Virus record (IMG/VR): IMGVR_UViG_2690316344_000014
Length of the DNA: 31,116 bases
Reading direction: 5' to 3' (one strand)
From: a virus
Taxonomy: Duplodnaviria > Heunggongvirae > Uroviricota > Caudoviricetes
This document shows, piece by piece, positions 3,587 to 31,116 of this stretch; the stretch's first letter is position 1, and each line of letters opens with the position of its first letter. The notes below the pieces were generated by a model. It made no database searches. It saw only the letters and a list, made by a program, of their open reading frames with translations, and was not told the origin of the DNA. Position numbers and translations under genes: made by a program.

Positions 3587-3948
3587 ACATCCCGGTTTCT
3601 TCCACCATCGCACCGGAAAAGCGACTATGAGGGTAACCCTGCGTCTGTCAGCACAGTAAAACCCGGTGTGCATCGTTTTTGATTATTCCCGCACACTCAC
3701 GCAGAAGGAATTCCCCGTCGGGCTACGGTCATGGTTAATGCGGGAATACGGCGACGATACAGCGCAGCTAAAAGGGTAATAGACGGATAGACCGGTTTAT
3801 TTCATTCCACAGGATTCTGAGTGTCCCCAACTTCCTCCAATAGTCTGAGCGTACACCTATATAGTTTTAATTTTCATCAATCCATTTAACTATCGTTTAA
3901 TTGTTGTCACATAGGATTCTGCCGTTTTTAACAATGCAGGATAATAAG

Positions 3949-8575: not shown

Positions 8576-8738
8576 GACTCCTCCTTGCTGCCAGTCGCAA
8601 CCATTTTTTATCAACCAAGCTGGCGGTATATCCGAGCAGTGTTGGTATTTCGGATGGCTTCAGCTCAGGTTTACGCTTACGACGATTTGGTACTCTGTAG
8701 ATGTGTCCGTTCATGACACGAATAAGCGGTGTAGCCAT
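8568..8738 (-). CDS. ninE: NinE
   Basis: 56 aa from the internal start [53 protein letters not shown]-type overlap with the upstream gene. Confidence 0.75.
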   Translation of the reverse strand: MATPLIRVMNGHIYRVPNRRKRKPELKPSEIPTLLGYTASLVDKKWLRLAARRSHG

Positions 8739-9193
8739 TACGCCTCCTGCTTGTCGCGCAGCAGCTGAAACTCGCAGCTCTGTGGAATAGTCAGGTGGCA
8801 ACCAATATTCATCGCCCAGGCTTCAACCTTACACAGGAAGACATACATCTCTCCGGTATCAAGATCGGAGGTATGGCGTAACGACTGGATAGTGGTGATA
8901 TCACCGGTTACGACATCAACCAGGTCTTTGGTTTCATAACCGAGATATGTGTGTTTGAGAGCATCTTTTACCCAAGCTGGAGTAGCGAACGTTTTACCCT
9001 TGCTGATGAGGTATTCACTGATTTCGCTGTACCACATGTGGCTGAGTGCATTCTGGGAAAGACTGCGTCTCTCGCGCCACGGTTTAAGCACCATGCGAAA
9101 GCATTTGCCTTCCTCCAGATAAGGCTGGATCTGCTGGCCGATAGCGGTGAAGTTGCCGCGATGTAATTTGATGCCGTCTTGTGGGAGGTTCAC
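8738..9193 (-). CDS. ybcN: YbcN-like prophage protein
   Basis: 151 aa, [55 protein letters not shown]. Position matches DLP12 ybcN. Confidence 0.75.
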
Positions 9194-18243: not shown

Positions 18244-18331
18244 TAAATTGATCTTGTAAAATCAATACCTATCGAATTTAAATGGATTTTTTGCCACAAT
18301 ATTGCCACAGTTCGTTAGGAATCAGACAGAA

Positions 18332-19405
18332 ATGGCGACTATACGCAAACGTGGTAACTACCAATGGGAAGCTCAAATCCGTAAACGTGGTTTTCCCTCT
18401 CAAACCAAAACCTTTAACACCAAAGTAGAAGCAGAAGCTTGGGCCAAAATGATCGAGTCAGAAATGGCGAGAGGAGTTTGGCTTAGCCGCAGCGAAGCGG
18501 AATCTACGACATTGTATGAAGCCCTAACGCGATATGAAAAAGAGATTGTTCCCGACAAAAAAGGGGCAGTGCAAGACCGATCATTGGTGCGGATACTAAA
18601 AGGCACTCAGCTGGCGAAAAACTATATGGCCAGCATCAGGAGTGCCGATGTCGCCAAGCTGAGAGATGAATGGTTGAAAATCTATGCTCCTGCAACCGTT
18701 TTAAGGCGTTTGGCCTTACTTTCTCATGTATTCAATGTTTCGCGGAAAGAATGGGGCATGGAGAGCCTGCTGAACCCCGTAGAGGCCATTCGCAAACCCC
18801 AACCCAAGAACTCCAGGACCAGACGCCTAGAAGCGCTGCCTGTAGTTTCTGAGAAAACCGGTGTTACGTCAGGAAAGCAAATAGCCAACGAGATCGAACA
18901 TATCATCGCCGCAACACATTCATTAGTATTGCCAGCAATCATTCTTCTGGCGTTAGAGACAGCCATGCGCCGTAGCGAAATCGCAGAGCTTCGATGGCGC
19001 TTTATCGATCTTGATCGGCGAGTTGCACATCTGCCGGATACTAAGAATGGTAATGCCCGCGATGTCCCTTTATCAACGAAAGCCATTACGATACTGTCCA
19101 GTCTCAAGGAACATTCTAAGCCAGCTGCTGATAAGGTTTTTGATATGCGTGCAGACGCGATTACCCGAGCTTTTGACCGAGCTGTAAAACGAGCCAGAGA
19201 ACGATACGAGAAAACAAACTCATTATGTGATGAATCTTTCCTTAAAGATTTAAGATTTCATGACCTTCGACATGAAGCAACTTCTCGACTTGCTGAAATT
19301 TTCCCTATGCATGAACTAACCAAAATTACAGGACATAAAGATCCAAGAATGCTAATGCGGTATTATCATCCAAAAGCTGAAGATTTGGCGTTAAAGTTGA
19401 AATAA
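18332..19405 (+). CDS. second tyrosine site-specific integrase/recombinase
   Basis: MATIRKRGNYQWEAQIRKRGF... with C-terminal catalytic residues (RRSE, LRFHDLRHEATSRL, MLMRYYH). The ORF can start at 18302. Lies just across the att fragment from the prophage int. Confidence 0.85.
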   Translation: MATIRKRGNYQWEAQIRKRGFPSQTKTFNTKVEAEAWAKMIESEMARGVWLSRSEAESTTLYEALTRYEKEIVPDKKGAVQDRSLVRILKGTQLAKNYMASIRSADVAKLRDEWLKIYAPATVLRRLALLSHVFNVSRKEWGMESLLNPVEAIRKPQPKNSRTRRLEALPVVSEKTGVTSGKQIANEIEHIIAATHSLVLPAIILLALETAMRRSEIAELRWRFIDLDRRVAHLPDTKNGNARDVPLSTKAITILSSLKEHSKPAADKVFDMRADAITRAFDRAVKRARERYEKTNSLCDESFLKDLRFHDLRHEATSRLAEIFPMHELTKITGHKDPRMLMRYYHPKAEDLALKLK

Positions 19406-19414
19406 GGACGTTGT

Positions 19415-20305
19415 ATGGATTATAAAAATAAGTTAGTTGATGCATCACCAAAATTAAACAACCCTCAACTATTGGCTATAATATACTTAATACCTTTTGG
19501 ATACTTGATTGTAGAAAACCCATTATGGCTAGAAAATATATACATTGCCGCTCCAATTTTCCTATCATCTATAGCTTTATTAACCAGTGTATACATAGGA
19601 TATCGTGATTTATTAAATAAAGTATTTAATAATGCAGTAGTTAAATGGGGCGTAACTGGCTTTACATATTCCGTATGCTTATGGATCGCAAAGTTTAAGC
19701 TTGACATAGCTTATGGTATAGTCCCAGAAAACCTTAATTACTCGACATTAGCTTATGCTTTCATGCTCTCATTTCCAATAGGGGCAATGATTTGTGCAAT
19801 TACAGTCTATATATACATATTTTTGCGAGATGTATCCCCAGCAAAAATAGTAATATCCTCTATGATTTCAGTATATATTGGAAGCTTGGCTCAACATCAT
19901 ATACAGGTGAACAATCTTCCTGAAAAAATAATATTAATAGGACTTATAATTATGGTCCCCTATAACATGGTCAATTTAGCTAGTTCATTAGTTATTAAAA
20001 GGAAATTTAATTTTAATCGTTTAGTATCAGGCTTATCCCTTTTTGCTGTGTCAGTTGCTCTTTTTATTATTAGCATGACAGCAATGAAATACATTGAAAG
20101 ATTTCAAGAAAAGTTTATTTTTCTCGATGCAAGAACATCTACGACATGTGGTAGCTCAGAAAGCAAATCTCTTTATATTGAAAAAAATGAAAATCAGTGT
20201 TATAAAATATCAGGAAATAAATTCTCGGAGTTAAGACTAACTCTTGTAGATAAAAACATCTTGAATATAAATAATAAAGGCACTTCAACTTATGAACAAA
20301 AATAA
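19415..20305 (+). CDS. hypothetical polytopic inner-membrane protein
   Basis: 296 aa, AT-rich codon usage, multiple long hydrophobic segments (LLAIIYLIPFGYLIV, AAPIFLSSIALLTSVYIGY, LIGLIIMVPYNMVNLASSLVI, LSLFAVSVALFIISM). No family recognised. Confidence 0.6.
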   Translation: MDYKNKLVDASPKLNNPQLLAIIYLIPFGYLIVENPLWLENIYIAAPIFLSSIALLTSVYIGYRDLLNKVFNNAVVKWGVTGFTYSVCLWIAKFKLDIAYGIVPENLNYSTLAYAFMLSFPIGAMICAITVYIYIFLRDVSPAKIVISSMISVYIGSLAQHHIQVNNLPEKIILIGLIIMVPYNMVNLASSLVIKRKFNFNRLVSGLSLFAVSVALFIISMTAMKYIERFQEKFIFLDARTSTTCGSSESKSLYIEKNENQCYKISGNKFSELRLTLVDKNILNINNKGTSTYEQK

Positions 20306-20519
20306 CCCTGCTAATTCATTTTCTATAGAAGCAAGGAAAGAAGCTTTTCGGAGAGCTGAAGCCAGTCTTTTTTATCAAGTAAAGATCCCAAAGGCTCCTC
20401 ATTTTTTAATGAAATAAAAACTAAGGTAATCAATGGAGAGCTAACCTATGAAGAGGCAAAGAGAGAAGTATTAAATTATCACATTGAACAATCTAAAAAT
20501 CAAAATAAAAAAGGCTAAC
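20292..20519 (+). pseudogene. small ORF split by a frameshift at a T6 run (41-aa 5' part plus 3' part in another frame)
   Basis: MNKNNPANSFSIEARKEAFRRAEASLFYQVKIPKAPHFLMK-stop. Adding one T at the T6 run (20405-20410) restores a 75-aa ORF ending ...NGELTYEEAKREVLNYHIEQSKNQNKKG. Function unknown. Confidence 0.3.
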
Positions 20520-20539
20520 ATTTAGTTAGCCTCTTCTCA

Positions 20540-20752
20540 CTAGTGAGCTATTTTATAGTCCCTTAATGCATTTTTAAGTAACTCCGTTTGCTCATCAGCA
20601 TCATCATAATTATAAATTCCCGTAGCAGAATAATACTCTTCGATGCATAGAATATTTATCAATGGTTCACAAATCTCTTTAATAAACTCCTTGTTGTTAT
20701 CGGCAAAAATAATTTTTATTCCTTCCAAAACAAAGCTATTATAATCAGCCAT
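20540..20752 (-). CDS. hypothetical small acidic protein
   Basis: 70-aa ORF 70 nt downstream of trbL on the same strand. No recognisable family. Confidence 0.4.
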   Translation of the reverse strand: MADYNSFVLEGIKIIFADNNKEFIKEICEPLINILCIEEYYSATGIYNYDDADEQTELLKNALRDYKIAH

Positions 20753-20782
20753 TATCCACCTCCTTACAGGTGTTTAGTGGAA

Positions 20783-20814
20783 GCGTCAGTTAACGTTACC
20801 GCGCTAACTGACGC
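20783..20814. repeat. hairpin: 10-bp inverted repeat with 12-nt loop between trbL and the 70-aa ORF
   Basis: GCGTCAGTTA (20783-20792) and TAACTGACGC (20805-20814). No flanking U-run. Confidence 0.3.
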
Positions 20815-20821
20815 GCCTAAA

Positions 20822-22225
20822 TCAAGATTTTTTACTGCCAGTTAAACTATCACCCTCAAACTCATCCTGTTCGTGGTTAGTCTGACGATCGGCTGTGTGT
20901 TTACGTATTTGATTCGCTATTTCCCCACCAACGGTCTGTTGTCTTCGGATAGTATTAGTACTTCCCTTCATCATCTGATACTCCGAAGCTCCGTTAGACA
21001 ACCCGCTCGCCATGTGAGAAGCCATGCGGCCAGCTCGTGAGAATGATGAAGCAAACCCCTGGCTTCCTCCGCTGACGCTACCTGTATTACTCCCTGCAGA
21101 AGAACCACCGGAACCGCCTGATGGTTGTCCTCCAGAAGTATCTACGGAACCGGTATCTTCCCCTCCGCCAAATCCTCCACCTGAACCACCTTTATCACCA
21201 GAACCAGATTCTTCGGCCATCGCCGCTTGTGCAGATTCAAATGCTGCTTTTAGAGCGGAAGCACCACCACTGACTTGAGCTGTAGCACTTATTGCCATTG
21301 CCCCAGCGCCACTGATTGCAGTAGTAGCAGCGCCAGTAATCATACCTGCTCCAAAACCACCGATCCCTTGTAAGGACGCTCCTCCAACAACGCCTGATAA
21401 CAACAACGGTAATTTATTCGTCAATACTAAAAGAATAATTGACGCCAGAAGTAAAACAATAAGACTATTAAGATCAGGAATATCATTTTTAATAATAGAA
21501 AAATACTGATCTATAAATGATTGCCCAATCCCAATGATTAATGTCATCGTAAATAACTGAATACCAATCGATAATACTGTGCGTAAGTAATTTATTGCTA
21601 TATCAGAAGTCCATTTCGAGCCACCAAACCCAAGCAAAATAACTCCTGCATAACACAACACCCATGCAGAAACTAACATTATTAGCATATTTATCGCGAT
21701 AAGCGCCATTACTACTAATACTATTATCGCGACGGTTATCATAATGGTCGAAATCATTGGAGACCAAATTGATGCTGCTGAACTGACCTTTGTTAATATC
21801 ACAAATGCCATATCCACTATGCTGGAGGGTGAAATACCAGTACTTGTTCCTAAAGCATTTGCTGCAAGTTGTCTCATTGAGTTAATTATAGATTGTGATA
21901 TGGCTGGGCCGTTGATTAAAAGATAATAAAAAAAACCAATCACGGCAAAAAAACGAACTATTTCTGCAAGTGCACTGATTAAACCTTCCCCTTGCATCGC
22001 CAACATACCAAATGTCCAAACCATACTTATTAATACCACCCCCCAGAAGAGCCAATTTGCATAATCACCAATTACTAATGACCATGTGCTGGCTACTTGC
22101 TGAAACTTATCTAATAACGTATCAAGTAATCCGCTACTATCTAATTGACCAGCATAAGCATTTACAGAAAACAAAAAAAACATTCCTAAAAAAGTGAGCT
22201 TGCTTACTATTCTCATAATTACCAT
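20822..22225 (-). CDS. trbL: P-type conjugative transfer protein TrbL/VirB6
   Basis: 467 aa. N-terminal signal plus multiple transmembrane helices, then a C-terminal Gly/Ser-rich low-complexity tail (GGSGGGFGGGEDTGSVDTSGGQPSGGSGGSSAGS), typical of TrbL. Confidence 0.8.
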   Translation of the reverse strand: MVIMRIVSKLTFLGMFFLFSVNAYAGQLDSSGLLDTLLDKFQQVASTWSLVIGDYANWLFWGVVLISMVWTFGMLAMQGEGLISALAEIVRFFAVIGFFYYLLINGPAISQSIINSMRQLAANALGTSTGISPSSIVDMAFVILTKVSSAASIWSPMISTIMITVAIIVLVVMALIAINMLIMLVSAWVLCYAGVILLGFGGSKWTSDIAINYLRTVLSIGIQLFTMTLIIGIGQSFIDQYFSIIKNDIPDLNSLIVLLLASIILLVLTNKLPLLLSGVVGGASLQGIGGFGAGMITGAATTAISGAGAMAISATAQVSGGASALKAAFESAQAAMAEESGSGDKGGSGGGFGGGEDTGSVDTSGGQPSGGSGGSSAGSNTGSVSGGSQGFASSFSRAGRMASHMASGLSNGASEYQMMKGSTNTIRRQQTVGGEIANQIRKHTADRQTNHEQDEFEGDSLTGSKKS

Positions 22226-22392
22226 TCTCGCTTAGGGCTAGGATTGTTATTGCCACGCAGGGCACATTTATCGTAGTTATGTTCGTTCAATTTATTCTCT
22301 GGCGTCGATAAACAATCTTCATCTTTTTTATCGCAAGAGCATAGAATTAATGAAATTATTAGAATAAAAATGACCAAAAGTTTATCTTTCAT
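22219..22392 (-). CDS. small putative lipoprotein in the TrbK (entry-exclusion) position
   Basis: Found by hand (57 aa, below the ORF-track cut-off): MKDKLLVIFILIISLILCSCDKKDEDCLSTPENKLNEHNYDKCALRGNNNPSPKREW. Hydrophobic N-terminus followed by Cys; sits between trbJ and trbL as trbK does in IncP plasmids. Confidence 0.45.
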   Translation of the reverse strand: MKDKLLVIFILIISLILCSCDKKDEDCLSTPENKLNEHNYDKCALRGNNNPSPKREW

Positions 22393-22403
22393 TCAGCTCT
22401 CCC

Positions 22404-23198
22404 TCACCAAATTCGCTTCGGGCTTGGTGTGTTCTCGCCAGCTAACGCTTTTTCATCAGCGACTATTTGTTGGGCTTCTTTATCAGCCTCAGCCTGTGCC
22501 AGTGTTGCTGCAGCGTTTTGCTGAGCTACCAGAAGCGAGCGGATTTGCAGCAACTGGTTCGTTTGAGCACTGGCAAGCTGGTTAGCGGCCTGAATAGCTT
22601 CCATTTGCCCTTGTGCGCCGGTTGCCTGCGTTTGTAAATCTGCAAGGTTGTCAGCATCGCTTTGCAGTGTTTCCTGCTGTTCGTCAAGAGCCTTAAATAC
22701 AGCGTCATTGGCCTTTTTACGTGCCTCAGAGCTGTTCTGTTCAGCTTTGCGCAGTGCGCTAATTTCATCCGCAGTACATTCAACATTACTGTTAAAGCAC
22801 GGTGATGAGCGGTAGTAATTCACGTCCTGATAACGTTTCAGATATGAATCAAGACTCCCGGCCTGGTTTTTGTAGTAATTTAGGGTGTCCTGCGCCTGCA
22901 ACAATTTGTTGATGGTCGAATTGGCCTGATCCCAGATATAGGCTGCAGGTGCGACTGTATTTTTGAGCATGTTTTCATACTGCTGCAGCTGCGTCTGGTA
23001 CTGCTGGATCTGTTTTGCCACAGCCTGAACGTTGTTGACTGCGCTGATTGTGGTCTGCACCACATTAGTACCATCGATTACAGGGATACCGGCTGTCGCC
23101 GGTAATGCCATGATGGACGCCAGGAAGGAAGCAGCTAATGATTTTTTAGCTGCTAAAATCCCTCTCAGTGATGAAAATACTCGGAGCATTAACTTCAT
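22404..23198 (-). CDS. trbJ: P-type conjugative transfer protein TrbJ (VirB5-like)
   Basis: 264 aa, signal peptide then a coiled-coil-rich Q/A-rich sequence (QIQQYQTQLQQYENMLKN ...). The trbJ-trbK-trbL order is conserved. Confidence 0.75.
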   Translation of the reverse strand: MKLMLRVFSSLRGILAAKKSLAASFLASIMALPATAGIPVIDGTNVVQTTISAVNNVQAVAKQIQQYQTQLQQYENMLKNTVAPAAYIWDQANSTINKLLQAQDTLNYYKNQAGSLDSYLKRYQDVNYYRSSPCFNSNVECTADEISALRKAEQNSSEARKKANDAVFKALDEQQETLQSDADNLADLQTQATGAQGQMEAIQAANQLASAQTNQLLQIRSLLVAQQNAAATLAQAEADKEAQQIVADEKALAGENTPSPKRIW

Positions 23199-23279
23199 TT
23201 GCCCACCTCAAATTTAACTGATTATTAATATTGAAAACTCGTACTTTTAACAAATACAGATATTTAGGAAACCATAAAT

Positions 23280-23645
23280 TTATTTATTCAAGATTCTATC
23301 CATAATATTTCTTAGTTCTTGTCTGGTTGATTCTATTTTAGCAAGCAACGTTTTTATCAATGAGGGTGAAAAATCAACTGTGCGTGGATCGTTAGCTAAC
23401 CACAGTTTAAGTAACCCACCAAGTCGACCAAGATCAGCATTTACTCGGCTAAGCTCTACAACCTGTTCAATATCTACCATAGACTCAACCTGATAACCCA
23501 TTGCTACTTTACGAATGAAACTCGCTACACTTAAGCCAGATGCTTCTGCATTATCCTGGATTTGCGCTTTTTCATCTGGCAAACAATAAACTTTAATTGG
23601 TGTACTATTTTTTCTAGTCTGAGAAACGGTCATATCATTCTCCAT
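23280..23645 (-). CDS. traJ: relaxosome accessory oriT-binding protein, TraJ/MobC family
   Basis: 121 aa with PIKVYCLPDE and DLGRLGGLLKLWL motifs resembling RP4 TraJ / the MobC family. Sits immediately beside an RP4-like oriT. Confidence 0.75.
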   Translation of the reverse strand: MENDMTVSQTRKNSTPIKVYCLPDEKAQIQDNAEASGLSVASFIRKVAMGYQVESMVDIEQVVELSRVNADLGRLGGLLKLWLANDPRTVDFSPSLIKTLLAKIESTRQELRNIMDRILNK

Positions 23646-23660
23646 ACAGGCGGTAGCCGA

Positions 23661-23765
23661 TCAGCCTCGCAGAGCAGGACTCCGTTGAGCAGCTCAGCTG
23701 CGAATAAGGGAAGGTAAAGTAGAAGCACCGTTTACGGTGGGCCTACTTTACATATCCTGCCCTAC
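23661..23765 (+). other. origin of transfer (oriT), IncP/RP4 type, with TraJ-binding inverted repeat and nic site
   Basis: CAGCCTCGCAGAGCAGGACTCCGTTGAGCAG ... GCGAATAAGGGAAGGTAAAGTAGAAGCACCGTTTACGGTGGGCCTACTTTACATATCCTGCCC closely parallels the RP4 oriT as I recall it from mob vectors. Inverted repeat GTAAAGTAG (23714-23722) / CTACTTTAC (23743-23751), then the ATCCTG/C nick consensus at 23754-23760. Confidence 0.8.
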
Positions 23766-23915
23766 ATTTGCCGTTGTGAATCTGTGTACGTATTGTGTAT
23801 TCCTGTGTACTCAGTGTGTTTTCCTAAAGCATTTGTGCAGGATTAGTAGTGTAAAAATGTGCAGCATATGTGTTTATTGGAATGGAAATTATTTGAATGA
23901 CCCTAAGAGATATTT

Positions 23916-24197
23916 TTATTCTCGCGGCTTGGGTTTTGGCGGCCTGCCACGTTTCCTTTGACATCTATTTATCTCTTTCGCTATATCGTCATTTTCTGTC
24001 TTTGACTCAACAGATTTATCTATCCAGTCCTTAACATCTTCTTTACGCCAGAGAAGACGTTTATTACCGGGAAGACGGCATCTTGGTGGAAGACATTTTG
24101 GATTTCGCGTTGCATCACTGCGGATACTTTTTACAGTTTTCTTTAATGCAAAAGCCAACTCTTCAACGGTTATAAGTTCTGGCATAACTGATTTCAT
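23916..24197 (-). CDS. alpA: AlpA-family DNA-binding protein (excisionase/transcriptional regulator-like)
   Basis: MKSVMPELITVEELAFALKKTVKSIRSDATRNPKCLPPRCRLPGNKRLLWRKEDVKDWI, the AlpA/MerR-like winged-HTH pattern, with a basic C-terminal tail. The ORF can start at 24209. Confidence 0.7.
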   Translation of the reverse strand: MKSVMPELITVEELAFALKKTVKSIRSDATRNPKCLPPRCRLPGNKRLLWRKEDVKDWIDKSVESKTENDDIAKEINRCQRKRGRPPKPKPRE

Positions 24198-24231
24198 CGA
24201 AGAACCCATCTCTCAGTAGAAATTTGAGGAT

Positions 24232-24259
24232 TTTAGCGGCTAAAATTTTAGCCGCTAAA
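24232..24259. promoter_or_regulatory. 28-bp perfect palindrome immediately upstream of alpA
   Basis: TTTAGCGGCTAAAA-TTTTAGCCGCTAAA, 23 nt upstream of the longest alpA start. Candidate operator. Confidence 0.45.
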
Positions 24260-24509
24260 GTTTGCTAACCAACGTTATGAATTGAGAATAATTAAAACTT
24301 ACTGGCAAAAAGAATAATGTCAACAGGGTTTTTATTCATCGGATTCTTACTCCATATGAAATTGGTTTTATTGACCGATTTCTGAATGACACTAAGGTTT
24401 TAATAATTCCTTTAATCTTTTTGGTTATATAAAAGGTTAAAGATCAGGTTAGAGAGGTGTGGAAAAGCGATATATTCACTTGTTTACTATGACAATTTTA
24501 AATTATATC

Positions 24510-24572
24510 CGTACCTCAAATGTCATGAAAGCGTACCTCATATGTCATAAAGGCGTACCTCATATGTCATAT
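24510..24572 (+). repeat. three tandem ~22-bp direct repeats (iteron-like)
   Basis: CGTACCTCAAATGTCATGAAAG, CGTACCTCATATGTCATAAAGG, CGTACCTCATATGTCATAT, head to tail. Confidence 0.7.
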
Positions 24573-24615
24573 AATAAAAAATAAGCAAACAAGTTATACA
24601 CAATATTATTAACAG

Positions 24616-24865
24616 AATCTGTGGATAAATACACAGATTATACATGATAAAATAGATTGTTTAGCTAAACTAAATAACAATAAATAAAATGAAACAAAAT
24701 GTAAATAACAGGGGGGGGGGTGTAAGTGACTTATAAATTTGGTTAGCTAACCTTTATAAGAAACACTGTTTGTAAATGATTCATTTCTGACAACGGATAT
24801 ATCGAATTTGAGTAAGAAAAACACTTCAACTAACCTTACTCTCTGATTTGTTTAGCTAAACAAAT
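24616..24865. promoter_or_regulatory. cluster of palindromes upstream of the higA-like gene, three sharing a TTAGCTAA core
   Basis: AATCTGTG-n8-CACAGATT (24616-24639); GTTTAGCTAAAC (24659-24670); CTTATAAA-ttt-GGTTAGCTAACC-TTTATAAG (24730-24760); ATTTGTTTAGCTAAACAAAT (24846-24865, 20 bp perfect). Confidence 0.5.
24711..24720. repeat. G10 homopolymer tract
   Basis: Ten consecutive G in an otherwise AT-rich intergenic region. Confidence 0.9.
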
Positions 24866-24889
24866 TACTGTAAGGAATCCGATGACGTT

Positions 24890-24904
24890 AAAAAAAAGGG
24901 GGGG
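24890..24904 (+). repeat. A8G7 homopolymer tract overlapping the ribosome-binding site of the higA-like gene
   Basis: AAAAAAAAGGGGGGG ends 2 nt before the ATG at 24907. Confidence 0.9.
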
Positions 24905-24906
24905 AT

Positions 24907-25164
24907 ATGAGGACAATAAATGCTGCACCTTCAACTGTCGGAGAGATTTTATACGAAGAATTCTTGAAACCATTGGATATGCCTCCCGCAAGACTTGCTG
25001 AACTGATGGATACATCATATGAAAAAATTTGGGAAATAATTAAAAATGAGCGAAATATAACTCTTGAAGAAGCTATTCAACTCTCGATAATTTTCAATAC
25101 AGATGCATCTTTTTGGGTGAAACTGCAAGAGCTACATGAGGCATGGTTTAATAAACAAAAGTAA
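24907..25164 (+). CDS. HigA-like XRE-family HTH protein (antitoxin-like / transcriptional regulator), apparently orphan
   Basis: 85 aa, MRTINAAPSTVGEILYEEFLKPLDMPPARLAELMDTSYEKIWEIIKNERNITLEEAIQLSIIFNTDASFWVKLQ, the HigA/VapI-type pattern. No HigB/RelE-like ORF found on either side. Confidence 0.7.
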   Translation: MRTINAAPSTVGEILYEEFLKPLDMPPARLAELMDTSYEKIWEIIKNERNITLEEAIQLSIIFNTDASFWVKLQELHEAWFNKQK

Positions 25165-25364
25165 GGTTATTCAATTAGATTACTTAGTCCTAATACATAA
25201 TTTGCTTTGAATAATACTCATACATTTCTAACGACTTATTAAAGCGATAATATACTCGGACGACTGAGGATTAAAAAATCCGATCCTTGATGATGGGAAC
25301 CTGCCATGACTAGGTAAGTCATTTTAGCAGTGGTACAGGCGACATTAAAAGCCGATATAAAGAA

Positions 25365-25397
25365 GCCCGACTGGTAAGATCGGGCCTTTTTATTTTT
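25365..25397 (+). terminator. rho-independent terminator
   Basis: GCCCGA-ctggtaaga-TCGGGC followed by CTTTTTATTTTT. Confidence 0.5.
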
Positions 25398-25782
25398 CCA
25401 CTCTGGCCTGAATGGAACATCCTACATTAGACGTTAAGATCTTACATCTAATTATCCGAAAATACTAATGGATGCGTAGTTGCATTTGACCTGACCGCCC
25501 ATTTGCGGGTTACTCTACCATCGCCAATAAAGTCCGGCTACTCGAATTCGGAAGTATTAGGCTATAGGTCATAAACCTGAATAACTGCTATGTGCTGAAG
25601 CGGATAAAGCTGACATCATTATGCACCAATCAACTCGGTGTAAGTCAGCTAGTTGGTGATGGAGTGACTTGTCAATAGTTGTAGCCCCTACCAGTGCATC
25701 GGAGATTCTTGAGTGTAACCTTAGTTGCTTTAATCAGAAGTAAAGGAAACGTACTATGAAAATCAGTACTCTTAATCAAGAG

Positions 25783-25812
25783 ATCCCCCGTTCTCTCACG
25801 GAAAAGGGGGAT
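25783..25812. terminator. hairpin just 3' of the 420-aa gene
   Basis: ATCCCCC-n16-GGGGGAT beside the stop at 25820; T-rich sequence follows on the plus strand. Confidence 0.3.
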
Positions 25813-25819
25813 TGAATTT

Positions 25820-27082
25820 TCAAATTTTCTTTTTAGCGATAAAAATACAGTAAAAATATAAGGTTTTGATAATGTGATTAATGCTGTGCACCTCGCGAAA
25901 TAATAGTAATAGCTTCCTCATAAAAGACATGAAACTAAGTTCGTTGTATTTAGTGCGTTCCATTCCTTCCTTAGCGAAATAGTAGGTTATCATCTGAATT
26001 GACTCTTTATATTCATATTTATAATGTGCAATGCCATTTCGCAGCTTGTTGTCTAAAGCATTGAGATCAACTATATAAAAGCTATCATCCAATCCGCTTA
26101 TTTTCGTGCCTAAATCAACGTTTGCATATTCGTTGAGACTAGAAAAACCTTTAATTAAATCGCCTTTTTTATTTAGTCTTACTGAATCGTCAAAAATATT
26201 ATGATCTCCGCGTTTTAATAAGTTATTCAATCCGGCCACAATTATTAATTGCCGAGAGAATACTTCAGATAAGTCTTTGTAAAAATTGTTACAGTCATCA
26301 AATTCGGCAGTTGAAACTCGAGCAGGAATCATTGATAAATCTACGTTTTTATCATAATCATAGTAAAGCGCTGGGCGTGAAGGGAGTTCAAAGTCAAGCA
26401 TTTTGGGATATAGGCTTAAACAATCGAAATGCAAACTTTTCAGAAACCCACTTCCAATAATATCATCTAAAAATTTATTTAGCTGTTTTGGATGATTTTT
26501 CTGAATATAATGAAGAAATTGTGGCATTTTTTCACTAATTTCAGCATTATGTGCATGTATTGTAAAGGGAAATGACATTGCAGAGGTTGCTGTATAAAGT
26601 GCGGAAAGGATATCTTGTATTTTTAGCGAACGAGGTTTTTTCAGAGTAGGTAATTCTTTCATTAGGTTACTGAAAGTATTGTAATTTCCTTGTTTGTATT
26701 GAGTAATGAGTCGCTGGAGCTTATCGCGATGTTTATAAATATAATTCATTCCATTTAGATGTGCGTTCAGCATTAAGTATTTTTCATGACCTATTGCACT
26801 TGTTATTTTTAAGAATGCTGTTTTTCCTATTTCGTATTTTCCAAAGCCTACGGGAAAATCTAAATGCAAATCGATGAATGGATTTGTTGTGCCAAAGTCA
26901 TTGCTTTCTACAGTTTCCGCACCGTTAAATACAGGCTCTCCCTCCCCAAGAGTAAACGATATATTATTCTCACAATTTGGACATGCAAATTGGAACGGTT
27001 GTATGTCTCGATTAGACATACCTATTCTTGTATCAATGACCGTGTCACATACAAGGCATTTAAATTGCTGTAAAAAATTCAT
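25820..27082 (-). CDS. hypothetical protein with N-terminal zinc-ribbon (CxxC ... CxxC), 420 aa
   Basis: MNFLQQFKCLVCDTVIDTRIGMSNRDIQPFQFACPNCEN: Cys9/Cys12 and Cys34/Cys37. AT-rich; no family recognised by eye. Confidence 0.6.
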   Translation of the reverse strand: MNFLQQFKCLVCDTVIDTRIGMSNRDIQPFQFACPNCENNISFTLGEGEPVFNGAETVESNDFGTTNPFIDLHLDFPVGFGKYEIGKTAFLKITSAIGHEKYLMLNAHLNGMNYIYKHRDKLQRLITQYKQGNYNTFSNLMKELPTLKKPRSLKIQDILSALYTATSAMSFPFTIHAHNAEISEKMPQFLHYIQKNHPKQLNKFLDDIIGSGFLKSLHFDCLSLYPKMLDFELPSRPALYYDYDKNVDLSMIPARVSTAEFDDCNNFYKDLSEVFSRQLIIVAGLNNLLKRGDHNIFDDSVRLNKKGDLIKGFSSLNEYANVDLGTKISGLDDSFYIVDLNALDNKLRNGIAHYKYEYKESIQMITYYFAKEGMERTKYNELSFMSFMRKLLLLFREVHSINHIIKTLYFYCIFIAKKKI

Positions 27083-27329
27083 AAATATTTTATTAATCCT
27101 ATAAATTATAAGTTAAGTATTAGTCTTTTATCTACAAACCAAAGCCACTTTACTACTTTACCTAACTGCACTTTAAACAATCATAAGTTCTTTTTTTTTA
27201 AAAAGGTAGTCCAAAGATACCAATTTATTCAATATCAACGAGAATTCGAGACTCCTATGTGAGTAAAAAACTATGAGCTTCATGCCATGCTTTCAATAAA
27301 TGTCTTCAGTTACCCATAAATTTACTGGA

Positions 27330-27857
27330 TTAACAATTTGTAGTCTTTCCGACCAAATTACCGCGCGCAGTGTGACCCCATACTTTAGATGTCACCTTAT
27401 CTCTTTCCACTAGTTGTTTACGGTGCATCAAATCGGCAAGCAGTATTGAAACAAAGAACATGAATTTTGTTTTGGGAGTATTAGGAACATCTTTGGGTCC
27501 AAGCCAAGGTAGCTGCTCCAGTTGATTTTGTATTTTGGGTGTTGCGAAGCTAACACCATTCCAACTATGCCCAAAAGCATTTCTAATGCTACGCAGTGTG
27601 TTTAGTTCTTTGTATTCGTGTTCCATTATCAGTCCTAACGCATATGCTAAGCCTGTTCTAGCAGCAAAAGATGATAAAGGCGCTGTTGCACCATTCAGTA
27701 GACCTTTAGCTACTTTGTCATTTAACAGGTGAGCCTGGATGATCTCGGATAACCACTCATCGAAAATGGATGCTGCTATTAGAACAGAGCCACGATCTGA
27801 TTCTTTATTTAGTTCGGACAAAAATTGACCGAGTTCAATTTGGGTTTTATCACTCAC
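27330..27857 (-). CDS. HEPN/MtlR-like protein with Rx4H motif (candidate RNase-type toxin or abortive-infection protein)
   Basis: 175 aa. The N-terminus (GSVLIAASIFDEWLSEIIQAHLL) resembles the MtlR/HEPN helical fold; RNAFGH (R92-x4-H97, nt 27567-27584) fits the HEPN Rx4-6H motif. Confidence 0.5.
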   Translation of the reverse strand: MSDKTQIELGQFLSELNKESDRGSVLIAASIFDEWLSEIIQAHLLNDKVAKGLLNGATAPLSSFAARTGLAYALGLIMEHEYKELNTLRSIRNAFGHSWNGVSFATPKIQNQLEQLPWLGPKDVPNTPKTKFMFFVSILLADLMHRKQLVERDKVTSKVWGHTARGNLVGKTTNC

Positions 27858-28371
27858 AGACTCTGGAACTCCTTTCTCAAAAATTCAACATGAGGACGCT
27901 TCGGTCGCACATCAATCTTAACCATTAGATTATGAAATTGTGTTAGGTCTGGGTCAAACTATGAACAAAAACAGAAAAAATTATTGTGACGTTATTTAGG
28001 GGGACCTACAATGACACATTTTAAACAATTACTTTAATATCAATAAATTGGATCGTATTACTGTGTTCCTATTATTGGTTTAGCTCAGCTTGTCGCTCAC
28101 AGCGGACCTTCAGCTCGATAGCAAGTCCGCTCCGTTGGAGTGCCAGATGCGCTCTAAATTTGATGGCTAGTATTGAAGAGATACTTGGGCATCATGGTTA
28201 TGGTGTAAATACCGTCTGTGATACCCGCAGAGGTGCTAGGTTTAGGCACTGAGAAGGATACATTGAACATGAATTCAGAGTGATGTAACACAAGTCATAG
28301 AAAATTAGTGATTTATATTGAAAAGGGGGCTATTTTATTAAAGCAAGGCCGCCTTTAGGCAGCCTCTTATT

Positions 28372-29049
28372 TTACATGTAGATATTCATTAAACTGTCAA
28401 ATAGTCTTTTGGTTAACTCTTTTTCCGCTCGTGCTTCGATTTGAGCCATACCATTTCGGAAGAGTTTTAATTTACCGCTAAATTCTTGGTCATGAATAGT
28501 ACATGTCAATCGATCAAGTCTCATTTTTTTGTGAATAAGCTCATCTTTGAAATATTTTTTAAGATCGCTGGTACTATTAATTTGCATCTTGGCAAGAGCA
28601 AATTCAGCAACTTGAATTTGAGATACATCTAGTTGCACTATATTAAGTGTCAACTCTGTGTTTAAAGAACTGAACCATATGAACGGGTCAATCTCAATCT
28701 CTTCTAAGCTGGTACCAAGACCAAGGTTTTTTACCAGTGCCTGAGCAAATGGTTTAAGTGTTCTCGGTGGATTATCAATAAGTAAAACTGGGGTGTATTG
28801 TTCGTCAAAACTGAAAGATGTTACTCTATATTCAATGCGTTCAACAGCGGTACTGTTGCCGTATAGATTACTTATTCTATCTTCGCTAATTATCTTTTCG
28901 ATGAAGCGAGCGTGAAAATGAGATGTTCGTGATTTATCAAATATAAACCCTTTCCCTTTCTCTTCAGTAAAAGGATCACGCATGAGTTTTTCAACTGTTT
29001 CACTAGTAGTGAAACGATTGTTGAGTTTAATCCATTTAAATTTTTTCAT
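28372..29049 (-). CDS. hypothetical protein, gene C of a coupled three-gene operon
   Basis: 225-aa ORF whose start overlaps the last 14 nt of the upstream gene. AT-rich; no recognisable motif. Confidence 0.6.
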   Translation of the reverse strand: MKKFKWIKLNNRFTTSETVEKLMRDPFTEEKGKGFIFDKSRTSHFHARFIEKIISEDRISNLYGNSTAVERIEYRVTSFSFDEQYTPVLLIDNPPRTLKPFAQALVKNLGLGTSLEEIEIDPFIWFSSLNTELTLNIVQLDVSQIQVAEFALAKMQINSTSDLKKYFKDELIHKKMRLDRLTCTIHDQEFSGKLKLFRNGMAQIEARAEKELTKRLFDSLMNIYM

Positions 29050-30115
29050 GCTCTTCCACCTTTTTACCCGTCACGATATTATAGGCGTCTGCTGCTGACT
29101 GTTCAATTAGTAGGCTGATTTTCTTCTTTTCAACTTCATTTGCTGCACGAATAGTAACATTGTATCCACTACCTTTTTGGTTATTGATTCCTTTAATTTG
29201 ATAGGAAAAATCAGAGCAATTTTCTGAATCCTTAAAGAAAGCTTCAACCAAAATCCTGTCTCCTATTCCGTTTTTAGGTTTAGCAGACCAAGCAATTCTT
29301 CCAATATAGTATCCTTTGTTATGTAGTTGGGTGAAAATAGCAGAACTATTAACAGAATCACCTTTTAGAACCGCTTTTTTTACGAATCCTGTCTCGATTT
29401 CTTCTTCTTCCTCGTCATCACCTTTGCTTGTTGAACGGTTAAGCTCTACATTAGTAACGTCGTCAATTTCATATCCACTCAAGCCGCCCATAACCTCTTG
29501 AAAAAACTGACTTCTTAGCGCTGGTGTAGGAATCGCTTCTAAAGAAATTTCAAACTTTTCAACATCAACGGATTTAATCTTTGACAACTCTTTTTGTAAT
29601 AGTGTTATTACATCTTTAGCCTTTTGGTTCTGAGGCATACGAATATCAACATTATCGTTATTTACAGTAAGATCAATCTTGATGTTTCGGTTGTCTATCT
29701 GACGCAATGCTGTTCTGGACAAGTCTACTTCTTGGTAGTTTACCTCGATTGCTAAAGACCCATCTTTTTTCGCAGTGATTTTTACTGTTTCACCAGAGCC
29801 AGTGGCTAATTTTCTTTTAACTAACTCTGCTGCTGTTTTTAATTCCGTCTGAGAGGATGATGCTTGAAGCTTGACGCTAGTTATACTCTCTCTTTTATCA
29901 TAAGTTTGTACAAGTTCCTTAATAGAATCTAGATCACTATATCCCTGAGGTAGTTTGCAAACCTCTTCAATTAATTCCTCCTTTGTTAAGTCTTGAGCAA
30001 CAATAATACCTTTCCGTAATAATATCTCGCGTAATCTTGCGATGGTAATTCGTTTATGATGAAGTGCATCATATATATTTTTGTCAGTTGCGAAATAAAT
30101 ATTCATGTTATTCAT
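29036..30115 (-). CDS. hypothetical protein, gene B of a coupled three-gene operon
   Basis: 359 aa with an acidic stretch (GDDEEEEEIE). Its ATG overlaps the upstream stop by 1 nt (TAATG). No family recognised. Confidence 0.6.
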   Translation of the reverse strand: MNNMNIYFATDKNIYDALHHKRITIARLREILLRKGIIVAQDLTKEELIEEVCKLPQGYSDLDSIKELVQTYDKRESITSVKLQASSSQTELKTAAELVKRKLATGSGETVKITAKKDGSLAIEVNYQEVDLSRTALRQIDNRNIKIDLTVNNDNVDIRMPQNQKAKDVITLLQKELSKIKSVDVEKFEISLEAIPTPALRSQFFQEVMGGLSGYEIDDVTNVELNRSTSKGDDEEEEEIETGFVKKAVLKGDSVNSSAIFTQLHNKGYYIGRIAWSAKPKNGIGDRILVEAFFKDSENCSDFSYQIKGINNQKGSGYNVTIRAANEVEKKKISLLIEQSAADAYNIVTGKKVEEHEKI

Positions 30116-31116
30116 TAACGTTGCTCCATGCCTATAGCTTCAAGACTATATTGAATTACCATTGCAGCTGTTTTTTCGAATGCAACTTTTGAAAACAAAC
30201 GTTCACTTTCGCCTGATAGCCAATGGGCACTATATTTTTGCTTTGCTCTTTCAAAGTGATGAATGGAGTCTTCATGCGGATTTATATGACAATGTCTAAT
30301 TTTTATTCTTTTTGCATCAGTCAGTATTTGATAATTAGAAAGCATGTCAAGGAAATAGATGAACTCATCTTCACTATTCCCTGGTTGATTATAATAAATT
30401 ACGTAACCACTATCTTCTTTTTCACCCATCCAATCGAATTCTTCATGCTTTATTATTATGAATGGTGATGTTAAGACCTCAACAGTAGCTGCAGTCTTAT
30501 TGTTGATAGGATGTTTTATCCTAGTTAGTGCTAAGTCTGGGTAATAGAAATAGTACAAATCTGGTTGAGGTAAAGCCCCGGTACCAATAAGCATTTTAAT
30601 ATCTGATGCTATATTTATCATATCGGATATTTTGAATGGATCTAAAAGGTGTAATTTTATGTTTGGGGGGCATTTTATTATTTCAGGGTCGACTTTCTTC
30701 ATCACGGATGAGTAAAAATCCTTGTCATAAAGGTTGTCATGATTATAGAGAAATAATAAACCTCGAACTTTGTAACCTAATGACTCATCCCGCACATATC
30801 GTTTACACCACTGTTGGCTAATGTTGGCGCATTCTGTAGCGAGAGCTAAAGAAGAAAGTGCACCTTCTACCATCCCTTTGCCGATACTACTTTGAGCATA
30901 GCTTTTGAGGTCTGTGTTCAAGTACACAATCTCTTCTTCATAAGGATCGGTATAGTAAAACACCACATCGCTAGGATGTGTTTTTTTGTCATGAGCCTCT
31001 AGGTCGCAATCCCAGTTCATATCTTGACTAGTAGCTCGTTGCCATTTGAAAATTTTAAAAATATCTTGGGTTATCTTATTTGCAACATGCTGTATTGAAG
31101 AGGTCTCTCCGCCCAT
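30115..31116 (-). CDS. hypothetical protein, gene A of a coupled three-gene operon; possible PD-(D/E)xK nuclease-like motif; start at or beyond the window edge
   Basis: At least 333 aa. The ORF reaches the last base of the window, where an ATG lies. A hydrophobic strand ending in Asp (DVVFYYTD57) is followed by EIVYLNTD69-L-K71, a pattern like restriction-endonuclease-fold motifs II/III. Confidence 0.55.
   Translation of the reverse strand: MGGETSSIQHVANKITQDIFKIFKWQRATSQDMNWDCDLEAHDKKTHPSDVVFYYTDPYEEEIVYLNTDLKSYAQSSIGKGMVEGALSSLALATECANISQQWCKRYVRDESLGYKVRGLLFLYNHDNLYDKDFYSSVMKKVDPEIIKCPPNIKLHLLDPFKISDMINIASDIKMLIGTGALPQPDLYYFYYPDLALTRIKHPINNKTAATVEVLTSPFIIIKHEEFDWMGEKEDSGYVIYYNQPGNSEDEFIYFLDMLSNYQILTDAKRIKIRHCHINPHEDSIHHFERAKQKYSAHWLSGESERLFSKVAFEKTAAMVIQYSLEAIGMEQR

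Follow-up and report, generated by a model that had tools for sequence, protein, structure and literature searches.

Results

Two long G tracts in one intergenic region

We examined a stretch of 31,116 nucleotides from the IMG/VR virus record IMGVR_UViG_2690316344_000014 (the whole of which is referred to as the window), and in particular two mononucleotide tracts upstream of a gene for a HigA-family helix-turn-helix (HTH) protein. The intergenic stretch around the tracts is 697 bp long, has a G+C content of 30%, and is shared by this higA-like gene and a divergent, excisionase-like open reading frame (ORF) of 97 aa. Tract 1, read directly in the window, is a homopolymer of ten G residues with the flanks ...TAAATAACA-G10-TGTAAGTGAC. 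Tract 2 is a run of seven G residues fused to a preceding run of eight A residues (A8G7) and is followed by AT and then by the ATG of the higA-like gene. The coordinates of these and other features are collected in Table 1.

Tracts 1 and 2 are the only G/C runs of at least 7 nt in the window, and both fall within 194 bp. Base composition predicts approximately 0.01 G/C runs of at least 10 nt in the whole window and approximately 0.002 runs of at least 7 nt in a 697-bp intergenic stretch. With overlaps counted, G7 words occur five times in the window, compared to 1.32 in shuffles. For E. coli K-12, published counts of mononucleotide runs are 216 at 8 nt, 19 at 9 nt and 1 at 10 nt (bioRxiv 10.1101/346874). 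Both tracts, which had been noted in an original prediction made from the letters of the window, are therefore real, and they are not due to chance. The prediction had called long G tracts rare in AT-rich enterobacterial intergenic DNA. The same prediction correctly placed the end of the G7 run 2 nt before the higA-like ATG (24904 versus 24907) and the G10 run between palindromic sites. Cores of the sequence TTAGCTAA lie on both sides of tract 1, at 24661-24668 on the left and at 24743-24750 and 24852-24859 on the right; four such words are present in the window, where 0.69 are expected.

Tract 1 varies in length among nearly identical copies of the island

The intergenic stretch is present in approximately 60-90 of 5,426 complete E. 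coli genomes, where it is chromosomal, and no genome in this collection has the window's own junction. Our comparison set comprised 13 + 6 E. coli chromosomal copies, six metagenome contigs and one copy from Enterobacter vonholyi. Fifteen independent copies of the island that carries the tracts, the window included, are more than 99% identical to the window (the >99% clade) and otherwise differ from one another at 0-3 positions in 1.2 kb. Among these 15 copies, tract 1 is G6 in four, G7 in five, G8 in three, G9 in two and G10 only in the window, which makes it by far the most changeable site in the locus. Two of the G8 copies arose by insertion and the third (ETEC6) by a T-to-G substitution that joined the next G to the run. 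This boundary substitution is found in three copies, and two copies of the T-to-G subclade are G9. Four isolates from Nepal, Bangladesh and Indonesia all have G7.

The clearest comparison is between strains E54 (G8) and E8 (G6), which have no mismatch in 40,999 bp and differ at tract 1 only. A third strain, E1316 (G7), differs from each of them by two substitutions and by tract 1. The other 68 runs of at least 6 nt in these 41 kb have equal lengths in E54 and E8, and they include six G/C runs of 6-7 nt, three A/T runs of 8 nt and one of 9 nt. Similarly, when the window is compared to E54 over their shared 14.3 kb, 11 of 12 runs of at least 7 nt are equal in length, and only tract 1 differs. 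Because so many neighboring runs agree in both comparisons, general miscalling of homopolymers is unlikely as the source of the variation at tract 1. Barring an assembly artifact, these data support the prediction that tract 1 is prone to slippage: it ranges from G6 to G10 among 15 near-identical copies and is the one site at which E54 and E8 differ.

Runs of G6 or longer are found at tract 1 only in the >99% clade. The segment between ...AAATAA and TGAC... is 14 nt long and non-repetitive in the outgroups. It reads CAAGGCAAGGTAGA in E. vonholyi, CAGAGGGTTGTAGA or CAGAGGATTGTAGA in an E. coli clade of 93-94% identity (the 93% clade) and CAGGGGATTGTAGA in a clade of 98.6% identity. The 14-nt form within the >99% clade is CAGGGGGGTGTAGG, which contains G6. 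Since this form keeps the 14 nt, the run was built by substitutions only. Tract 1 is a derived feature and has not been maintained across lineages: the E. coli clades of 98.6% and 93% identity lack it, as does E. vonholyi.

Tract 2 and the ribosome-binding site of the higA-like gene

The original prediction had extended length variability to tract 2. We did not find it there: tract 2 keeps a constant length in the >99% clade, with A8G7 in 13 of the 15 copies. In ES6 an A-to-G substitution makes the run G8 and leaves the total length unchanged, and the remaining deviant copy is a contig of approximately 2-fold coverage that carries other single-base insertions and deletions (indels). The A8 run is present in all E. 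coli chromosome copies fetched, and A7 is found in some metagenome variants and in E. vonholyi. More distant relatives also have a G-rich sequence at this position: the 93% clade reads A8-GGAGGGGGG-ATG, the 98.6% clade reads A8-GGGGGG-AT-ATG, E. vonholyi reads A7-GGGGGAGAT-ATG, and the higA homolog of plasmid pHS102707 reads AGGGGGGAAT-ATG (in longer context TAGGGGGGAAT-ATG). Four lineages have 9 nt between the end of the A run and the higA ATG, and one has 8 nt.

The 3' end of 16S rRNA carries the anti-Shine-Dalgarno sequence, with which AAGGGGG at 24896-24902, 4 nt from the ATG, could pair by way of one G-U wobble. Taken together, these data indicate that tract 2 is a conserved, ordinary ribosome-binding site with an ancestral G-rich Shine-Dalgarno (SD) sequence, and tract 2 would have inherited its geometry from GGAGG-type ancestors. 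Because tract 2 is constant among close relatives, it would signal translation constitutively rather than act as a switch. The suggestion that a change in the G7 run would alter the spacing between SD and ATG holds insofar as tract 2 overlaps the SD, but no change in length was seen at this depth of sampling.

Tract 2 is also crossed by a questionable upstream ORF (uORF). From the uORF ATG at 24882 to the higA ATG, the 93% clade and E. vonholyi have a distance of 26 nt, which gives a uORF of 9 codons whose stop overlaps the higA start in ATGA. A distance of 25 nt is found in the window clade, in the 98.6% clade and in one metagenome variant, and here the reading frame runs on for 39 codons out of frame with higA. 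The 25-nt states stem from three separate losses of 1 nt, in the T run, the G run and the A run of the cluster, and AAGGA lies 5 nt upstream of the uORF ATG in the window clade. These observations would suit an effect of the cluster on higA translation. However, nothing varies within the >99% clade, so there is no fast switch; the uORF has no SD in the lineages where coupling would occur; and the 9-codon frame match in two lineages has a chance of approximately 1 in 3 in each.

In a comparison of window positions 24866-24876 with L009, L011 and L017, the 93% clade has a perfect TATAAT approximately 35 nt upstream of higA (ACTATAATGAAT). The window clade reads ACTGTAAGGAAT here, with two more substitutions towards G, by which the -10-like hexamer was lost and the AAGGA before the uORF ATG was gained.

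The higA-like gene appears to be an orphan

The 85-aa product of the higA-like gene matches the HigA family model TIGR02607 at 65.9 bits (E 2e-18; curated cut-off 47.7) and also phrog_1381, a plasmid antitoxin with an HTH domain. The ORF is intact in all copies, with a ratio of nonsynonymous to synonymous substitutions (dN/dS) of 0.23-0.42 calculated from few sites, and its product is 51% identical to HigA of pHS102707. Upstream of higA we found no HigB-like ORF of at least 30 aa that could encode a toxin partner. When the HigB-like protein of pHS102707 was compared to the window by tblastn, the sole match was weak (E 8.8) and lay far from the locus, at 3602-3673. With no remnant detected by tblastn, we rejected the idea of a degraded higB upstream of higA whose frame is set by the tracts. 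On sequence grounds, the higA-like gene is an orphan outside any HigBA module, and its product may act as a DNA-binding regulator only.

In pHS102707 itself (L014), a HigB-like ORF at 8694-9140 continues without a stop before higA for 148 codons, and a G6 run sits exactly at the junction. A change of one base in this run would shift the end of the toxin frame. The PLSDB gene table has no protein at 8694-9140.

The tracts lie in an apparent relic of an IncP-1-type origin and control region

The original prediction had treated the palindromes beside the tracts as sites of the HTH regulator. They match the published IncP-1 KorA operator instead, which is a symmetric word of 12 bp, GTTTAGCTAAAC (PMC2680271, PMC2665229, PMC11790492). 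Two of the three sites, OA1 and OA3, are perfect, and OA2 agrees at 10 of 12 positions. OA1 is 100% conserved out to E. vonholyi and OA2 is 100% conserved in all relatives; OA3 is degenerate in part of the 93% clade (TTTAACAAAAC, TTTAACTAAAC). By their match, the palindromes appear to be KorA operators and are not evidently HigA sites.

Other elements of the intergenic stretch point in the same direction. Two words fit the 13-bp KorB operator (OB) consensus TTTAGC(C/G)GCTAAA, the sequence of which is published (PMC2680271, PMC11790492), and both are located 23-50 bp upstream of the leftward excisionase-like ORF. OA1, OA2 and one OB are perfectly kept in E. vonholyi, where the intergenic DNA overall is 87% identical. 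Three tandem iterons are 90-92% identical to a site that IncP-like plasmids, pTA13-3 among them, have between trfA and a klcA-like gene. These iteron-sharing plasmids carry the OA and OB words as well, arranged as in a canonical trfAp with 32-33 bp between OA and OB, and pHS102707 also has both words in the trfAp arrangement. These data suggest that the region is a relic of an IncP-1-type plasmid origin and control region in a chromosomal island.

Table 1. Features of the tract locus, with positions in the window and strand (a point marks features given without strand).
Feature	Position	Strand	Basis
Excisionase-like ORF, 97 aa, divergent from higA; the tracts lie in the shared intergenic DNA	23916..24209	-	phrog_66, phrog_6355
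Two abutting KorB operator words, TTTAGCGGCTAAA (24232-24244) and TTTAGCCGCTAAA (24247-24259)	24232..24259	.	match to published OB
Three tandem 22-bp iterons, CGTACCTCATATGTCAT..., putative relic of an IncP-like oriV	24510..24575	+	repeat and plasmid match
DnaA box, TTATCCACA, with the iterons on one side and an AT-rich stretch on the other	24620..24628	-	sole perfect match in the window
OA1, GTTTAGCTAAAC, exact match to the 12-bp KorA operator; tract 1 is 40 bp to its right	24659..24670	.	published operator
Tract 1, G10, non-coding, derived, G6 to G10 in close relatives	24711..24720	+	sequence, comparative lengths
OA2, KorA-operator-like palindrome GGTTAGCTAACC, 10/12 positions, 20 bp right of tract 1	24741..24752	.	
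OA3, GTTTAGCTAAAC, exact match to the KorA operator; the higA ATG is 45 bp downstream	24850..24861	.	
Questionable uORF across tract 2, 39 codons, out of frame with higA	24882..25001	+	putative
A8 run directly 5' of the SD; its last two A would extend anti-SD pairing (AAGGGGG)	24890..24897	+	sequence
Tract 2, G7, SD region of the higA-like gene	24898..24904	+	sequence, relatives
Orphan HigA-family HTH gene, 85 aa	24907..25164	+	TIGR02607

The 97-aa ORF matches the profiles phrog_66 (excisionase and transcriptional regulator, E 7e-6) and phrog_6355 (E 2.5e-31) and is labeled a hypothetical protein by RefSeq in relatives. The island is 13 kb long and adjoins tRNA-Thr and proA. Its genes are an integrase, trbL, trbJ, a NikA-type traJ, the excisionase-like ORF and the higA-like gene, followed by cargo. 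A traJ-II RNA (Rfam) lies at 23663-23762, ahead of traJ; among known RNA families, the region contains only this match, which is outside the tract locus, and a sub-threshold match to Thr_leader.

The island thus carries the cis elements of an IncP-1-type plasmid (traJ with its traJ-II RNA, TrfA-type iterons, a DnaA box, OA and OB) together with trbJ and trbL, and is without trfA, korA, korB and a relaxase (18302-31116; core 21907-25598). Its backbone is 92% identical in E. vonholyi, where the right-hand cargo differs. The island reads like a satellite or mobilizable island that would use IncP-like helper plasmids for regulation, replication and transfer. This setting, with plasmid-type iterons, oriT-side genes and operators but without the cognate proteins, is arguably more interesting than the tracts. 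A literature search on the island found nothing.

Metagenome contig OHRC01000383.1 (L017) has four iterons, not three, in the region that corresponds to window positions 24505-24580. All four carry GCCCCTCATATGTCAT in place of CGTACCTCATATGTCAT, and the flanks are still alignable. The change looks concerted, as if the iterons had been matched to another initiator. Operator-like words are also present in coding sequence, TTTAGCTGCTAAA in trbJ and CGTTAGCTAACC in traJ (23145-23157 and 23390-23401), and these may be extra KorB- and KorA-type sites or chance occurrences.

To the right of higA, approximately 430 bp of non-coding DNA (25165-25598) are approximately 92% conserved in E. vonholyi and contain a strong hairpin at 25363-25387; among RNA families, this stretch has the sub-threshold Thr_leader match only. 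Conservation with E. vonholyi stops at approximately 25598, at the start of the cargo genes. The cargo (25820-31116, minus strand) encodes a 420-aa protein without a family match, an MtlR-like protein, two hypothetical proteins and a protein that is labeled PD-(D/E)XK nuclease in relatives. Part of the cargo is replaced by IS1 in ETEC6. The cargo could be a defense-type gene set.

Could the length of tract 1 act on expression?

We looked for ways in which tract 1 might influence the neighboring genes. At lengths from G6 to G11, no ORF spans tract 1 except a 15-codon chance ORF at G10, and a coding frameshift switch was rejected on this basis. The plus strand around tract 1 was scanned for promoters in the window, a G6 copy and an ancestral copy, and none of the three gave a site. 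On the minus strand, one weak site (TTTATA-17-TATTAT) was found over tract 1, only in a variant (L007) with an extra C-to-T substitution. Promoter-like sites in the region are fewer than in shuffles. When the putative leader was folded, the mean unpaired probability of the SD-AUG region was 0.49 at all lengths from G6 to G11, and with accessibility this flat we also rejected a long-range mRNA structure between tract 1 and the SD.

By eye, the plus-strand hexamers ATAACA-17-TATAAA flank the tract at the ancestral or G6 length, with a -10 hexamer that lacks the final T (position 6). Two further candidates, also read by eye, resemble korAp: OA1 has TAAACT in its right half and OA2 has TAACCT, an arrangement like that of korAp. 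Both candidates (ATGATA-16-TAAACT at OA1 and GTGACT-16-TAACCT at OA2) are weak, as are their -35 elements. If transcription starts there, tract 1 would either be part of the 5' leader or directly precede the -35 element, and in both cases it would be outside the spacer.

The distance between the centers of OA1 and OA2 runs from 78 to 82 bp across the tract 1 lengths, or from 7.4 to 7.8 helical turns. Two papers describe co-repression by KorA and KorB as independent of operator distance and helical phase (PMC2680271, PMC2665229), and inserting 5 bp is reported to leave co-repression unaffected (PMC2680271, citing Bingle 2005; PMC2665229). The idea that a change in spacing flips expression is undercut because cooperation is reported to be independent of distance and phase, and with it the proposal that the length of the G10 run matters through palindrome spacing. 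Tract 1 lies outside any ORF, any operator and any plus-strand promoter spacer detected by the scan. The predicted stochastic on/off switching of the HTH regulator thus finds no backing here, as no ORF, scan-detected promoter spacer or predicted mRNA structure ties the length of tract 1 to higA expression. In our estimate a switching function of the tracts is unproven and unlikely. Overall, the observation behind the original prediction is confirmed and its interpretation is partly supported.

Discussion

Tract 1 is probably a young, hypermutable run

We consider tract 1 to be a young mononucleotide repeat that is a mutational hot spot and not an evolved contingency switch, and we give this reading a probability of roughly 0.55. 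The run would have been born in one E. coli island lineage by substitutions towards G, passing from GAGGATTGTAGA to GGGGATTGTAGA to GGGGGGTGTAGG, as bases beside the run were overwritten by the run itself (run-templated substitution). From G6 on, replication slippage would have added bases to give G7, G8, G9 and G10 in different strains, with length changes that are presumably neutral or nearly so. In E. coli mutation accumulation experiments, substitutions are enriched up to approximately 18-fold at or next to runs, approximately half of them are run-templated, and the indel rate climbs exponentially with run length (10.1101/346874; PMC8510543). Growth by run-templated substitution is suggested because boundary substitutions of this kind occur again inside the clade, at tract 1 as T-to-G in three copies and at tract 2 as A-to-G in ES6.

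Several observations weigh against a hot spot of this simple kind. With a length of only G6-G8, tract 1 has changed at least two times in one clonal background. Over the same 41 kb, neither tract 2 with its G7 run nor any of the six other G/C runs of 6-7 nt has changed. All observed changes at tract 1 are gains, and no copy in the >99% clade is below G6. Gains only and a site-specific speed would fit selection, a site-specific mutation rate or a base-calling problem, and they are not predicted by a purely neutral, length-dependent model. The sample is also small, and tract 1 may have a promoter effect by way of the weak, korAp-like candidates at OA1 and OA2.

The foremost alternative is that tract 1 is a functional phase-variation tract. 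Its length would set the activity of a promoter in the KorA operator region, or the position of OA1 relative to an OA2 promoter, and would thereby switch or tune higA or the divergent excisionase-like and traJ genes. The length difference between isolates that are identical over 41 kb, the stability of nearby runs of similar length and the single direction of change are all in keeping with this idea. So are the weak hexamers, which stand exactly 17 bp apart on both strands in the ancestral or G6 state, where each added G lengthens the spacer as in known promoter-spacer switches. Further, the flanking OA1 and OA2 are perfectly conserved, and the region is therefore under constraint. However, none of the older lineages that have this module carries tract 1, which hence is not maintained. 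The hexamers are weak, the plus-strand -10 hexamer without T at position 6 is not called by the scan, and shuffles of this AT-rich DNA contain more promoter-like sites than the DNA itself. The G7 state is stable in the four isolates from Nepal, Bangladesh and Indonesia, which argues against switching at high frequency, and cooperation between KorA and KorB tolerates altered spacing. On balance, we regard a functional switch as unlikely.

It is less likely still that the differences at tract 1 are sequencing or assembly errors, or the consensus of mixed cultures, with the window's own G10 possibly miscounted. Long-read assemblies have a well-known weakness at homopolymers of at least 8 nt, several genomes that inform the comparison come from recent whole-genome shotgun records at chromosome level, a literature search for the E-series strains found nothing, and the sole copy with a deviant tract 2 is the contig of approximately 2-fold coverage. 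Yet the other 68 runs shared by E54 and E8, among them an A8 run, the A/T run of 9 nt and the adjacent A8G7, agree in length. Lengths are also consistent within groups, with G7 in the four related isolates and G9 in two copies of the T-to-G subclade. The variation is found among finished genomes of unrelated laboratories as well, and two Illumina-type metagenome contigs are both G6.

A bolder version of the switch, which we rate as a long shot just below an artifact, is a contingency switch caught at birth. The run would have arisen within the last fraction of a percent of divergence, in a KorA/KorB-controlled, TrfA-iteron-bearing region of an island that depends on IncP helpers, and its length would already be under selection. 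It might tune the orphan HigA, the excisionase-like and traJ genes, or helper-driven firing of the relic origin. Selection on length would explain why only gains are seen, why tract 1 changes faster than neighboring runs and why lengths differ within one clone. Least probable of all, and a weak lead only, is that the T-run, A8 and G7 cluster acts on higA translation over evolutionary time through SD-to-ATG spacing and uORF coupling.

If tract 1 is only a mutational hot spot, as we favor, it offers a natural example of the birth of a homopolymer by run-templated substitutions followed by its runaway by slippage. It is also a caution for the typing of island-carrying E. coli lineages by single-nucleotide polymorphisms and indels. 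If the length of tract 1 does affect expression, it would be a rare simple-sequence switch of E. coli. Its site would be a mobile island's control region, which in turn appears to be wired to the regulators of IncP-type plasmids. For annotation, what was a "regulatory region" becomes a putative relic of an IncP-1 origin and operator region, and tract 2 becomes an ordinary ribosome-binding site.

Comparison with known systems

Homopolymeric tracts in promoters are known from the poly-C tract of Bordetella pertussis fim and the poly-G or poly-C tracts of Neisseria meningitidis porA and opc; simple-sequence switches are uncommon in E. coli. Tract 1 resembles the Bordetella and Neisseria tracts in composition and in its variation between strains. 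It lies in intergenic DNA ahead of a gene, has 6-10 G residues and varies in steps of 1 nt between very close isolates, as slippage would give. Simple-sequence contingency loci are treated as a class in three papers (PMC1891110, PMC5084427, PMC2831843). Unlike such loci, tract 1 is young, is absent from older lineages and so is not maintained, has undergone gains only, and lies in no demonstrated promoter spacer or ORF.

In the IncP-1 plasmids RK2/RP4, OA and OB (TTTAGCSGCTAAA) are found at korAp, trfAp, klcAp and kleAp, beside oriV. The tract locus is similar in having two exact OA, one OA with 10 of 12 positions and two exact OB beside iterons, a DnaA box and an AT-rich stretch. It differs from IncP-1 in being chromosomal, in a tRNA-Thr island that lacks korA, korB, trfA and a relaxase; its iterons have a period of 22 bp, and the gene beside the origin belongs to the HigA family and is not klcA. 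Among HigBA type II toxin-antitoxin modules, an example is the higBA-like pair beside oriV in the IncP-like plasmid pHS102707. The protein at our locus fits the HigA model and shares 51% identity with HigA of this plasmid, and the plasmid's higA likewise has a G6 run just upstream of its ATG. In contrast to HigBA modules, higA at our locus has no HigB-like ORF or remnant upstream.

Run-associated mutagenesis in E. coli comprises substitutions by transient misalignment beside mononucleotide runs and indels that depend on run length (10.1101/346874; PMC8510543). The mutation accumulation lines of E. coli studied in the Foster laboratory differ from our material, which consists of natural isolates in which tract 1 appears to change faster than neighboring runs of similar length. 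The course of events is nevertheless alike: as with the runs in those lines, boundary substitutions lengthen tracts 1 and 2, and gains of one base follow once a run is long.

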